Made by a program: the position numbers and the translations under genes. A DNA stretch of 64,000 bases, taken from NCBI GenBank assembly GCA_017539865.1, contig JAFYCE010000078.1:27419-91418 (forward strand), read 5' to 3'. The DNA comes from Alphaproteobacteria bacterium (lineage in GTDB: Bacteria; Pseudomonadota; Alphaproteobacteria; CAAGCB01; CAG-977). Position 1 is the first letter of the stretch. Each line of letters begins with the position of its first letter. Below, piece after piece: positions 22,976-26,151 of this stretch. The notes under the pieces are model-generated. The model was not told where the DNA came from. It saw only the letters and a program-made list of their open reading frames with translations, and did no database searches.

Positions 22976-23791
22976 TCAGCGTCCCCGTTGTTTTGCCATA
23001 ACATCCAAAATTTGAGAAACCGTATCCTCTTTTTTGGCGTTTCCGGTCGCTTTCCCTTTATCGCCCGCATTTTCATCGGGTTTAATCGCGCTGCCGCGGG
23101 TCATCGGCGCATCACTGGCAAAATAAGTCGCAAACGTAATACCGGCCACCACCGCGTTGCGTTTAACTTCTTTAAACGTCGTCTTTCCCCTTATCCATTT
23201 AAAGAAGCTCCGTCCCAATGTTTTTAATTCCGATCCCATCAACAAAGACGCTTTGCCGGTACGAACCATTTCTTCAACACCGACGGCTCCGACAACTTCG
23301 CATGCCGTCGAGGCCATTGTCAAAGCGCTGTTCGTTGTAGAAACGGCGGCTTCTTCTTTGTTTTTCTTCAAATAATCAAATACGCCTCCGACTTTGCCTT
23401 CCTGACGTTCCTTTTCGGCCGGTTCCAAAAAAGCGGCCGCGCTTTCACATACCTTATAAGCGCACATGCCGACCACCCCCGGCAACCCAAACATTTGAGC
23501 AGCCAAAACCGTTCTGGTGATGTTTCTGATGCTCTTGCGGATTTTAACGTAAACCTGTCCGTGTTTCGCTTCCATATTTTTATCAAAATCATCCGCTTTA
23601 TGATACACGTTTCTGACAATGGGAATCGAATCGATTATCTTTTTCTCTTTTTGACGCATACGCTCTTTTATCGCCATTGAACGCGAAGTCGTCAAAGCGA
23701 CGAAACGCTCTATCGTCGCCTTGTCCAAATAAAAATGATGCTTCAATTTCTTGTTTTTTTCTTTTTTCGTTTCCGATTCAGCTTCTGTCAT
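22976..23791 (-). CDS. Hypothetical basic protein, family B paralog 1
   Basis: Shares a core of about 150 aa (YL.KAT.ER.VA.TT...M..K.R.RQK....ID.IP.VR.VYHK...FDK.M..KHGQ.YVKIR ... ESAAAFLEPAEK.RQEGKV.G.FDYLKKNKEEAAVSTTNS) with the ORFs at 23833 and 25258. Confidence 0.6.
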   Translation of the reverse strand: MTEAESETKKEKNKKLKHHFYLDKATIERFVALTTSRSMAIKERMRQKEKKIIDSIPIVRNVYHKADDFDKNMEAKHGQVYVKIRKSIRNITRTVLAAQMFGLPGVVGMCAYKVCESAAAFLEPAEKERQEGKVGGVFDYLKKNKEEAAVSTTNSALTMASTACEVVGAVGVEEMVRTGKASLLMGSELKTLGRSFFKWIRGKTTFKEVKRNAVVAGITFATYFASDAPMTRGSAIKPDENAGDKGKATGNAKKEDTVSQILDVMAKQRGR

Positions 23792-23832
23792 AACTTTCGC
23801 CTAAAAAACACTTTGTAAAAAATACATATCGG

Positions 23833-24501
23833 TCAACGACCTTCTTTTCCGCCTTTGATTTTCAAAAGGACAGGGTTGTTTTTCGCTCCCGTTTCTTTTT
23901 GTCCGTTTTTCTTCTTTTCTTCTTTAGCCTTGCGAGAATCGCGTACTTTTTTTACCAGCCTTGATCCGACAAACATCATCGCTTTTCCGGCATACGCCAT
24001 TTTTCTCAGACCGACGGCGCCCATGACTTTACCGATGACCGAAGCCACTTTCAGAACGGAATTCGTCGTGGAAACGGCTGCTTCCTCTTTATTTTTCTTC
24101 AAATAGTCAAAAATGCCTTTGACTTTGCCTTCCTGACGGGCTTTTTCGGCCGGTTCCAGAAAAGCGGCCGCGCTTTCATACATTTCACAGGCACAAGCGC
24201 CGATAATTCCCCATCCGCCGAACAACTGAGCGGCGACAACCGTCCTTGCCACGCAGTTTATGCCGTCGCGGATTTTAACGTAAGTTTGACCGTGCTTTTC
24301 CGTCATCCGTTTATCAAAATTCTCTATTTTATGATAAACGCCCCGTACGACGGGAATGGTATCAATCACCCTTTCTTTTTTCTGGCGAAAGCGATCTTTA
24401 AACGACATGGCGTAAGCCGTCGTTACAGCGACATAACGTTCAACCGTCGCTTTATTCAAATACAAACGCTTTGTTTTGTTTTCTTTTGCCGGTTGTTTCA
24501 T
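23833..24501 (-). CDS. Hypothetical basic protein, family B paralog 2 (shorter C-terminus)
   Basis: Roughly 85-90% nucleotide identity with paralog 1 over the stretch 24060-24180 versus 23305-23420, plus protein-level conservation. Confidence 0.6.
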   Translation of the reverse strand: MKQPAKENKTKRLYLNKATVERYVAVTTAYAMSFKDRFRQKKERVIDTIPVVRGVYHKIENFDKRMTEKHGQTYVKIRDGINCVARTVVAAQLFGGWGIIGACACEMYESAAAFLEPAEKARQEGKVKGIFDYLKKNKEEAAVSTTNSVLKVASVIGKVMGAVGLRKMAYAGKAMMFVGSRLVKKVRDSRKAKEEKKKNGQKETGAKNNPVLLKIKGGKEGR

Positions 24502-24512
24502 TTTTTTCGCCC

Positions 24513-25226
24513 TTAAAGCATATCCATCAGATTTTCAAAAGCCTGATGAACGTCCTCAACACTGTTTTTACCCGTTGCCAGATCCGTTGTTTGTTCCATC
24601 ATGAACAGCGTAATCAAAGCTTTTTCCATTTCGAACCGCATTTGATCCAAATAAACGTCCTGCGTCAATTCGCCGGTATACACGCACAAACGCATATATG
24701 CTTTCAGCTTTGCGGTTTCAACGATTGTTTCCTTAAACGCCGCCGTTTCCTCTTCCTGCTGTTCCAACGGATTGTCCCCGTCGGTCAAAACAACGGAATC
24801 GATGACTTTCAAGACCTGTTCAAACTGCGGATAAAGCAGTTTTCCGTCTTGCGTTTCAAAGGGATCTATCGTATCGAAATCTTCCAAAGAAGCTATATTT
24901 TCCCCGATTTTTTCAGAAGAAAGAGCGGACAGATTATCCAATCCGACGGTTTTATCGAATTCTTTCAGCATCGGCGTGATTTTCGCCTCGGCTTTTTTAG
25001 CCGACAGATTCAAATCGACGTTTTCCGTTTTTGAAAACGCTTTGATAAAGCTGAAAAACAAAGGGGATTCGTCTTCCGCCACCGGCAAATCGCCGGCCAG
25101 ATAAGCATTTATGCGCGATAAGGCTTCATCCGCCAAAGCTTTTTCTTTCAGTGTATCGTTTTCCTTTTGAGCCTGAGCATATTCGAAAACCAGTTCCGCT
25201 TCCGTTTTTTCTGAAAAATCTTTCAT
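24513..25226 (-). CDS. Hypothetical acidic protein embedded in the family B operon
   Basis: 237 aa, Glu/Asp-rich, with no recognisable domain. Tightly spaced between paralogs 3 and 2 (12 and 32 nt gaps). Confidence 0.5.
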   Translation of the reverse strand: MKDFSEKTEAELVFEYAQAQKENDTLKEKALADEALSRINAYLAGDLPVAEDESPLFFSFIKAFSKTENVDLNLSAKKAEAKITPMLKEFDKTVGLDNLSALSSEKIGENIASLEDFDTIDPFETQDGKLLYPQFEQVLKVIDSVVLTDGDNPLEQQEEETAAFKETIVETAKLKAYMRLCVYTGELTQDVYLDQMRFEMEKALITLFMMEQTTDLATGKNSVEDVHQAFENLMDML

Positions 25227-25257
25227 TTATGCCACCTTTGTTCAAATCCGAAAAATA

Positions 25258-26151
25258 TCAGCGCCCCGCTTTTCTGGACTTTATATCAAAAACGGTTGAC
25301 GGAGCAATCCCGTTTTCCAAAGTTTTCCGTATCTGAACGGCACATTTTTGCCCTTTTGTCAAAGCGCTGCGAATCTTTTCCTCCGCCGGATCATAAGAGG
25401 CGAGCGGTTTGACTTCTTCAGCCGACTTCGGTTTTCCCGATCCGCGGGTCATCGGAACGCTTGAAACGAAAAATGTTCCGAACGTAATTCCCGCAACGGC
25501 GGCATCGCGTTTGACTTCGACAAAGGATTCCTCTCCGCGCAACCATTTGCCGGTCGTCGCAGCCAGCCTTTTAACTTCCGGCGCAATCAACCACGACGCT
25601 TTTCCGACCCGAAAAGCCCCCTTGACAATCGGAGCCCCCACCACATCGCAAGCTGCCGTACAAATGCTGATGGCACCGGAAGTCACCGTAAAGCGCGTTT
25701 CTTCCTTATTTTCCTTCAAATAATCCAAAACGCCTTTTGTTTCACCGCTTTCCTTGGCTTTCTGGGCAGGCTCAAGCAATGAAAAGGCTTTTTCGCATGT
25801 TTTATAGGCGCATATCCCTACGACTCCGGGCAATCCGAACAATTCTGCAGCCAATACGGTACGCGTGATGTTTTTGATGCTGTCGCGGATTTTAGTGTAA
25901 ACTTGTCCGTGTTTTGCTTCCATATTCTTATCGAAAGCTTTCCACTTTTGGCTTATTTTATTCAGTACGGGAACAGCTTGAATGAATTTTTCGCATTTTT
26001 GAGACAAACGCGCCTTAAGACTCATCACGCCATGAGTCGTCGCCGATAAAAACGACTCCAACGTTTCCTTTCTTAAAAAAAGCTTCGGCGCTTTAGTCTT
26101 TTTTTCTGAAGAATCTGCCATTATCCGTTCCTGAATATTCCTTTCAGTCAA
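25258..26151 (-). CDS. Hypothetical basic protein, family B paralog 3
   Basis: Same conserved core (…KHGQVYTKIRDSIKNITRTVLAAELFGLPGVVGICAYK…LEPAQKAKESGETKGVLDYLKENKEE…). Start could be the internal MADSSEKK. Confidence 0.55.
   Translation of the reverse strand: MTERNIQERIMADSSEKKTKAPKLFLRKETLESFLSATTHGVMSLKARLSQKCEKFIQAVPVLNKISQKWKAFDKNMEAKHGQVYTKIRDSIKNITRTVLAAELFGLPGVVGICAYKTCEKAFSLLEPAQKAKESGETKGVLDYLKENKEETRFTVTSGAISICTAACDVVGAPIVKGAFRVGKASWLIAPEVKRLAATTGKWLRGEESFVEVKRDAAVAGITFGTFFVSSVPMTRGSGKPKSAEEVKPLASYDPAEEKIRSALTKGQKCAVQIRKTLENGIAPSTVFDIKSRKAGR

Follow-up and report, generated by a model that had tools for sequence, protein, structure and literature searches.

Genes that stand apart in one lineage and are joined in a single polypeptide in another, known as Rosetta-stone pairs, are a classic sign of subunits that interact or function jointly. 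The locus described here appears to belong with them. It is a minus-strand operon of four genes at positions 22976 to 26151 of a 64-kb stretch (the window, by which we mean the whole of the DNA that was analyzed) of contig JAFYCE010000078.1, from an Alphaproteobacteria bacterium (assembly GCA_017539865.1), and it encodes three paralogues of a basic protein together with one acidic protein. An obligate complex of the acidic and basic proteins, as a two-domain protein that has been split, is most likely; this is suggested by the complementary charges of the two, their invariant adjacency, the overlap of start and stop codons in several lineages, and a fusion found in distant relatives. For the operon as a whole, the explanation that we tentatively favor is that it is old, vertically inherited and lineage specific, and that in the obligate two-subunit complex the basic subunit would be membrane associated, with a C-terminal K-x-G-R tail serving in targeting or recognition.

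Split and fused forms of the pair

As far as sequence can tell, the strongest evidence that the acidic and basic proteins almost certainly act together is the fusion. An exhaustive hidden Markov model (HMM) search of 1.84 billion cluster representatives yielded only 41 basic-family proteins at an E value of ≤0.001, and its weakest matches were 14 long proteins (755 to 1291 amino acids [aa]) that carry the basic core internally, at residues ∼230 to 500. The N-terminal regions of these 14 proteins matched an expanded profile of the acidic protein in hhalign with a probability of 98.7% and an E value of 1.7e-16 over 221 columns. The match spans essentially the entire acidic protein, and a single-profile HMM puts it immediately upstream of the core in each long protein. 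Controls gave E values of 0.37 (reversed), 0.51 (basic profile against the N-terminal regions of the long proteins), and 0.8 (acidic against basic). What is split here into an acidic and a basic protein is therefore an architecture that runs from acidic domain to basic core to variable tail. The occurrence of this fusion in distant relatives argues against a toxin and antidote, and likewise against a classical export-chaperone relationship.

The fused relatives have features of their own. Two metagenomic contigs encode them as tandem paralogues, L035:4660-10343 (1070 and 780 aa) and L036:3773-10127 (951 and 1091 aa), with long Pro/Gln/Glu-rich linkers and C-terminal repeats of the types 'FWD.R...FLG' and 'G.E.F...Y...L...G...D.DGNIV'. 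Repeats of a D-x-D-x-D-G type were seen by eye in P0136, itself one of the fused relatives. When the alignment of the fused forms served as query, a homologue search brought up only close relatives of another such protein, P0134.

The features of the operon, in the order of transcription after its upstream element, are as follows (ORF, open reading frame; pI, isoelectric point; AF2, AlphaFold2).

26164-26225, minus strand: upstream element, putative operon promoter, from an alignment of 11 species
25258-26121, minus strand: P3, basic protein of the ancestral sequence type, 287 aa from its ATG, HMM score of 449 bits
24513-25226, minus strand: acidic, all-alpha partner, 237 aa, pI 4.27, supported by homologues, an AF2 model, and the fusion match
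23833-24501, minus strand: P2, short basic paralogue, 222 aa, tail ...LLKIKGGKEGR, supported by the ORF list and orthologues
22976-23791, minus strand: P1, basic paralogue, 271 aa, ending ...QILDVMAKQRGR, supported by the ORF list, an AF2 model, and orthologues
22943-22975, minus strand: intrinsic terminator, a 14-bp hairpin (AAAAAAGAGGGG...CCCUCUUUUUU) with a U-run, directly after the P1 stop codon

Pairing was tested by searching translated loci with HMMs of both families (24 GTDB representatives, loci L001 to L034). Wherever a locus has a basic gene, the acidic gene adjoins it, all 24 species representatives included, and in 21 of the 24 the acidic gene comes first and a basic gene follows, with gaps of 0 to 10 nucleotides (nt) or overlaps of 1 to 4 nt. 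The ancestral unit is one acidic gene followed directly by one basic gene. Larger arrangements occur as basic-acidic-basic in L001 and L011 and as basic-acidic-basic-basic in the window, L037, and L039. On the strength of this adjacency and of the fusion, the original prediction was right to tie the acidic protein functionally to the basic family.

Operon structure, upstream element, and inheritance

All four ORFs lie on the minus strand and would be transcribed in the order P3, acidic gene, P2, and P1, divergently from rpsF-rpsR-rplI in the window and in close relatives. The intergenic gaps are 31, 11, and 41 nt, the shortest being that from the acidic gene to P2, and a consensus scan found no terminator-like site above chance level inside the operon. 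The hairpin after P1, which that scan did not list, folds with a ΔG of -18.9 kcal/mol (z of -4.36 against shuffles). The short gaps and the hairpin with its U-run after P1 indicate that the four genes are one transcription unit, so the operon that had been proposed from the sequence is confirmed gene for gene, save for one boundary. P3 had been taken as 297 aa, and an ORF of that length does exist, from a TTG at 26151 (25258-26151). The true start is most likely the ATG at 26121, giving a 287-aa protein (MADSSEKK...), because the orthologues P0002 and P0003 and those in L037 and L039 are 287 aa long with the same beginning, because an AGGA sits 8 to 9 nt upstream, and because the TTG falls at or before the likely transcript start set by a conserved -10 box, downstream of which the ATG lies. 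No Rfam families and no tRNAs were found in the window.

The regions upstream of the first gene of the module in 11 species share a block of ∼65 nt with 36 invariant columns, and this invariance holds although the genes are close to saturated at synonymous sites. In the window the element reads CGAAAAAATAGA(G)AAAATTTTGTCAAAAAA-GCTTTT-...-TATGAT (26225-26164, minus strand), and its multispecies form is CGAAAAAATAGAGAAAATTTTGTCAAAAAA-GCTTTT...TATGAT; loci that match it are L001, L004, L012, L013, L016 to L018, L022, L037, and L039. The 22-nt core occurs once in the 64-kb window, where 0 matches would be expected by chance. The element contains an invariant TTTTGTC (TTGTCA at 26206-26201) and a -10-like TATGAT at 26169-26164, and the conserved TATnAT is plausibly, from its sequence, a -10 box. 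A distance of ∼31 nt separates the A/T-rich TTTTGTCAAAA part from the -10 downstream of it, more than a -35 would allow, and for that reason we read this part as a possible UP-like element or regulator site. A promoter picked by the consensus scan, TTGAAA-17-GATAAT at 26183-26155, was set aside, since it is not conserved in other species, unlike the TATGAT. We propose that this strongly conserved A/T-rich region, next to the rpsF operon, would drive the operon.

The original prediction held that P1 and P2 are 85 to 90% identical in DNA over 100 nt or longer, that this indicates recent duplication or gene conversion, and that the family is diversifying. The identity is real for one patch, the best 102-nt window being 88% identical; overall the two genes are 64% identical. 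Neither the recency nor the diversification survives comparison with other species. The order P3-acidic-P2-P1 is found also in another species, L039, and in L037, and the L039 proteins are 70 to 83% identical to those of the window (P3, 83%; acidic protein, 72%). Synonymous divergence between orthologues is ∼1 to 2 (∼1 to 1.7 for L039). The shared four-gene order and this high synonymous divergence mean that the triplication predates the speciation. The ratio of nonsynonymous to synonymous divergence (dN/dS) is 0.10 to 0.18 across all four genes, from orthologues in L039 and L001: 0.10 to 0.12 for P3, which is 72% identical to its L001 orthologue, 0.12 to 0.14 for P1, whose orthologues are 70 to 71% identical, 0.14 for P2, and 0.10 to 0.18 for the acidic gene. 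Each paralogue is therefore a maintained orthogroup rather than a member of a diversifying family, and positive or diversifying selection was rejected on the same values. Further P2 orthologues, of 222 to 236 aa, were found on other contigs (P0024, P0029, P0052, and P0053).

The P1/P2 patch of high identity encodes ESAAAFLEPAEK...STTNS. Over its 40 codons it is 0.86 identical within this genome, and the identity is 0.77 to 0.87 between orthologues and between paralogues of different genomes. The same codon is used at identical P1/P2 residues with a frequency of ∼0.8 in the patch versus ∼0.55 elsewhere. Recent gene conversion between P1 and P2 was rejected because the patch is equally conserved between species and between paralogues across genomes; it reflects strong constraint, and recent conversion is not needed to account for it.

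In the close clade the module sits between an rpsF-rpsR-rplI-dnaB block, sometimes with argG-argH, and htpG with a helicase gene. In distant clades it lies beside PFOR, gyrA, relA/spoT, or a GGDEF-EAL gene, and the acidic-basic pair persists in L007, L009, and L026 to L034, where the rpsF linkage is gone. No secretion, phage, transposase/integrase, or defense gene recurs near the module in the 39 loci. A phage or mobile origin was rejected: the IMG/VR viral contigs contain no relative, PHROGs gave no match, and neither integrases nor transposases are consistently close by. A conserved functional neighbor was likewise considered and rejected: an additional gene in the operon, for a DUF6782 HExxH peptidase-like protein, overlaps the acidic gene in the L009/L010/L032 clade only and is absent elsewhere and from the window.

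Two other regions of the window stand out. Compared with related genomes, ∼7 kb of extra genes (16068-22931) lie between the module and htpG/helicase, including those for a nucleotidyltransferase-substrate-binding-like protein, a CAT-like acetyltransferase, a 287-aa orphan, an OmpR-type winged-helix protein, hisA, hisE, a HIT protein, and a 631-aa protein with a signal peptide-like N terminus and a C-terminal trypsin-like domain. Positions 55000-61500 have a GC content of 31 to 35%, against ∼47% elsewhere, and carry genes for an Acyl_transf_3 membrane protein, a LysR regulator, an EcoRI-like adenine methylase, and a GmrSD-N domain protein; the stretch was probably gained by horizontal transfer, as an island with restriction/modification functions.

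A profile built from the three paralogues gathered 69 protein clusters, and all named matches, basic and acidic, are labeled 'MAG: Alphaproteobacteria bacterium' (MAG, metagenome-assembled genome). A scan of one genome per GTDB species found the module in 24 species, all from MAGs of human gut, rumen, or horse feces bar one contig binned as Limosilactobacillus. That contig (L029, CAVCSV010000034.1) is filed under Limosilactobacillus gorillae, and its module is identical in length, and nearly so in score, to that of L028, from the alphaproteobacterial MAG UBA6411; it is probably misbinned. The few matches, the restriction of the named ones to Alphaproteobacteria MAGs from gut, rumen, or feces, and the lack of relatives of the module in IMG/VR together indicate a rare, chromosomal family with a narrow host range.

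Protein features and candidate functions

None of the four proteins reached threshold in Pfam (best scores of 13 to 16 bits, against cutoffs of 25 to 27) or NCBIfam (E of ≥0.03, far below the cutoffs), which agrees with the first impression that they have no assignable motif. PHROGs and PADLOC gave no matches to them or to P0134 and P0136, and assignment of the fused relatives to a Pfam or NCBIfam family was likewise without result. The basic paralogues form a family, as had been proposed: they share an alignable core at about residues 20 to 190, with pairwise identities of 55% (P1/P2), 51% (P1/P3), and 38% (P2/P3), and their pI values are 9.7 to 10.1. The acidic protein contains 49 Asp and Glu residues against 23 Lys and Arg, and its AF2 model has nine helices with a confidence (pLDDT) of 85.8. 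With 38 homologue clusters and the purifying selection noted above, it is a genuine conserved gene product, as the original prediction had supposed.

The family alignment divides the basic protein into an N-terminal basic helical region with an invariant K-H/Y-G-Q-x-Y-x-K-x-R, a Gly/Ala-rich hydrophobic hairpin with a bend at F-G-x-P-G, one or two further hydrophobic helices, and a low-complexity linker of highly variable length, in which some members carry one to three '...LFAxGxGNPGGMITV' modules. In P3 the N-terminal helical core is followed by three Gly/Ala-rich helices of marginal hydrophobicity, then by a short linker and the tail ...STVFDIKSRKAGR. The third hydrophobic helix is missing from P2, whose C-terminal region is rich in Lys. 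The AF2 model of P1 is all helical, with long hairpins at residues ∼20 to 150 (pLDDT of 78 to 93) and a poorly defined C-terminal third. Kyte-Doolittle peaks over 19 residues reach 1.4 to 1.9 in the family, borderline for membrane insertion; the helices are not canonically transmembrane; they might form a buried core or a peripheral hairpin, or be inserting helices of weak hydrophobicity. By inspection of the sequences, no N-terminal signal peptide is evident, and every N terminus is hydrophilic.

The chain closes with a conserved peptide, (hydrophobic)-x-x-(hydrophobic)-...-K-x-G-R-COOH, which in the window takes the forms ...MAKQRGR, ...KIKGGKEGR, and ...DIKSRKAGR. A GR end is present in 52 of 63 close members of the family. 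The 26 distant representatives include 8 with a GR end and 4 with [ST]R, despite 100 to 700 unrelated preceding residues.

From these features we would picture the complex as follows. The basic half begins with a Lys/Arg-rich N-terminal pair of long helices. Gly/Ala-rich helices of marginal hydrophobicity, two or three in number, come next, the first of them with its bend at the conserved G-x-P-G, and then the variable linker and the K-x-G-R peptide. Its composition and the behavior of the tail suggest a place at the cytoplasmic membrane, either peripheral or inserted as a hairpin, with the tail acting as a short targeting or recognition peptide. Since the basic half exists in three old copies in the lineage of the window, a single acidic subunit probably works with P1, P2, or P3 as alternative partners, which would differ mainly beyond the core.

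Several points weigh against this picture. A few family members have no segment above 1.4 on the 19-residue Kyte-Doolittle scale, and the 'hydrophobic' helices might do no more than form the buried core of a soluble bundle. P2 keeps the tail without the third hydrophobic helix, a poor fit to any fixed transmembrane topology. In L012, L013, and L018 the acidic gene comes after a P3-type basic gene and has no basic gene downstream of it, so gene order is not strictly fixed. Finally, no sequence or fold relative of known function was found, PDB sequences and folds included, and any function must therefore be inferred.

Tails resembling K-x-G-R were observed on unrelated proteins encoded near the module in other species. 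Two HAD-like hydrolases (L014:41-943 and L020:6965-8071, minus strand) end in ...TVLTAVKGRLGR and ...NNLKMKNKNRGR, and a DUF6782 HExxH peptidase-like protein (L009:4539-5339, plus strand) ends in ...ALRLKRAGRDGR, with an orthologue ending in ...RGGRNG; L016:24-926 (minus strand) and L032:282-1100 (plus strand) belong to the same set. These amount to ∼3 unrelated families among ∼350 ORFs, all from loci picked around the module, which makes for weak statistics, and the likeness could mark a common C-terminal signal or be a coincidence. In the window itself, two tandem paralogues of another orphan family lie just downstream of dnaK and dnaJ (6878-7720 and 7909-8823, plus strand); they share 'VTAYPSGR[DE]VA.GK.TS..Y.K', one hydrophobic helix, and 'ENYP...EYD..LL.TIDS..NTG.SM..VEKGVL', have no Pfam match, and the first of them ends in ...AAIAAKKGNSR, loosely like the basic-family tail.

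The tail is central to the alternative that survives best, which we nevertheless consider unlikely: that the operon encodes an exported effector or translocator with a dedicated partner. The basic proteins would be membrane-inserting proteins exported through the K-x-G-R signal, for example by a type IV-like system; their marginal hydrophobicity would avoid Sec targeting, and until export the acidic protein would maintain their solubility or see to their targeting. A conserved, positively charged tail behind a hypervariable linker would suit such a role, and substrates of VirB/D4-type type IV secretion systems have positively charged C-terminal tails too, a weak and nonspecific likeness. Also consistent with export are the only marginally hydrophobic helices, the acidic gene directly upstream, the tandem paralogues, which occur in the fused forms as well, the Pro-rich linkers of some long relatives, one of them with the repeats seen by eye, and the GR-like tails on neighbors in L014, L020, and L009. 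However, no secretion-system gene was found in the 64-kb window (where type IV genes were among those looked for) or in any of the 39 loci, and known export chaperones are not fused N-terminally to their substrate, unlike the acidic domain in the long forms. The thin statistics of the shared tails, the single conserved chromosomal position, and the purifying selection likewise speak against export. The effector/chaperone analogy drawn in the original prediction is neither favored nor disfavored by these results. A bolder version is a long shot: that the K-x-G-R peptide is an undescribed sorting or export signal, carried also by the HAD-like and DUF6782 proteins, and that the module comprises membrane-inserting cargo or translocators with their dedicated partner. 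If that were true, the exported or membrane-targeted proteome of the lineage would become predictable.

The charge of the basic proteins suggests another role, which we regard as improbable, as soluble nucleic acid- or ribosome-associated proteins neutralized or regulated by the acidic partner, as a lineage-specific accessory factor coregulated with the neighboring ribosomal protein operon. The pI values, the Lys-rich tails (that of P2 above all), and the divergent transcription from rpsF-rpsR-rplI in the window and close relatives fit this role, and by our own reading the A/T-rich upstream element resembles the UP element of strong promoters. Against it, the acidic-basic pair outlives the rpsF linkage in distant clades, Pfam and NCBIfam revealed no nucleic acid-binding domain, and conserved Gly/Ala-rich hydrophobic helices would be atypical of such proteins.

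The toxin/immunity cassette to which the original prediction had likened the operon, with the basic proteins as pore-forming toxins and the acidic protein as antidote, is very improbable: the tight coupling of the acidic gene to a downstream basic gene as in type II toxin-antitoxin operons, the hydrophobic hairpin of a helical basic protein, and the several basic-gene copies in this genome would fit it, but at least 24 species have inherited the module vertically, at a conserved housekeeping position, and it is neither patchy nor mobile, all its genes are under purifying selection in clear orthogroups, no toxin or antitoxin match came from PADLOC, PHROGs, or Pfam and none of its relatives from viral contigs, no DNA-binding antitoxin domain, delivery system, phage gene, or defense gene accompanies it, both proteins are far larger than typical toxin-antitoxin components, and in distant relatives toxin and antidote would be covalently fused. 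Polymorphic toxin cassettes, too, are marked by toxin domains, by a delivery system (T6SS, CDI, Rhs, or T7SS) or its markers close by, and by a patchy or mobile distribution with fast diversification; the module has no toxin domain, its neighbors across the 39 loci are housekeeping genes (rpsF, argGH, htpG, PFOR, gyrA, relA, and GGDEF/EAL), and it shows synteny in the close clade with one module per locus in 24 species.

Comparison with known systems

The module matches no described family or system and is new by distance, by which we mean unmatched to what has been described; this is no evidence that the mechanism is new, and MAGs commonly contain conserved orphan gene pairs of the kind. A literature search on the gut alphaproteobacterial lineage returned nothing on these proteins. 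The host bacteria are common, uncultured inhabitants of the human, ruminant, and horse gut whose cell biology is almost undescribed, and the module, found in at least 24 species with a deeply conserved putative promoter, is one of the gene sets that define the lineage. It offers a testable starting point, with two proteins expected to bind, a defined core, and a defined C-terminal peptide.

Type II toxin-antitoxin operons likewise place an acidic gene upstream of a basic one with tight or translational coupling, and judged by arrangement alone this operon would pass as one. The proteins here are larger (∼240 and 220 to 340 aa) and have no known toxin-antitoxin domains, and the conserved position, vertical inheritance, and fused forms also differ, as does the provision of one 'antitoxin' for three 'toxins'. 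In the known operons the antitoxin binds DNA, the toxin has a known fold, and the two are separate polypeptides, a combination that is not found here.

Operons for class II chaperones and translocators of type III secretion systems (sicA-sipB-sipC, ipgC-ipaB-ipaC, and sycD-yopB-yopD) offer a further parallel, one of arrangement rather than of homology: the gene for a small all-alpha protein of acidic charge directly precedes one or more genes for helical proteins that have coiled helices and a moderately hydrophobic hairpin. That chaperone is a tetratricopeptide repeat protein of ∼160 aa encoded within a type III secretion cluster, which the acidic protein is not; no type III secretion genes lie near any of our loci, the basic proteins match no translocator in sequence or fold, and fused forms exist.

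The PE/PPE pairs of mycobacteria, an analogy only, are alike in that adjacent genes encode helical proteins, believed to pair, with a conserved N-terminal core, a variable low-complexity C-terminal extension, and tandem amplification. They belong to another phylum, and the module has no ESX/type VII secretion system and no sequence or fold similarity to them; its amplification is modest (one to three copies) and is not under diversifying selection. By analogy, the C-terminal amphipathic membrane-targeting sequences of the MinD/FtsA type may be comparable to the K-x-G-R tail, which is a short, basic, partly hydrophobic terminal peptide behind a flexible linker and is seen on unrelated neighboring enzymes as well. 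The near-invariant terminal G-R is not described for such sequences.

From other Rosetta-stone pairs the module differs in that neither of its halves belongs to a described family, and a fusion predicts partnership rather than activity. What it shares with them is that genes adjacent here are, elsewhere, the N-terminal and central parts of a single polypeptide.

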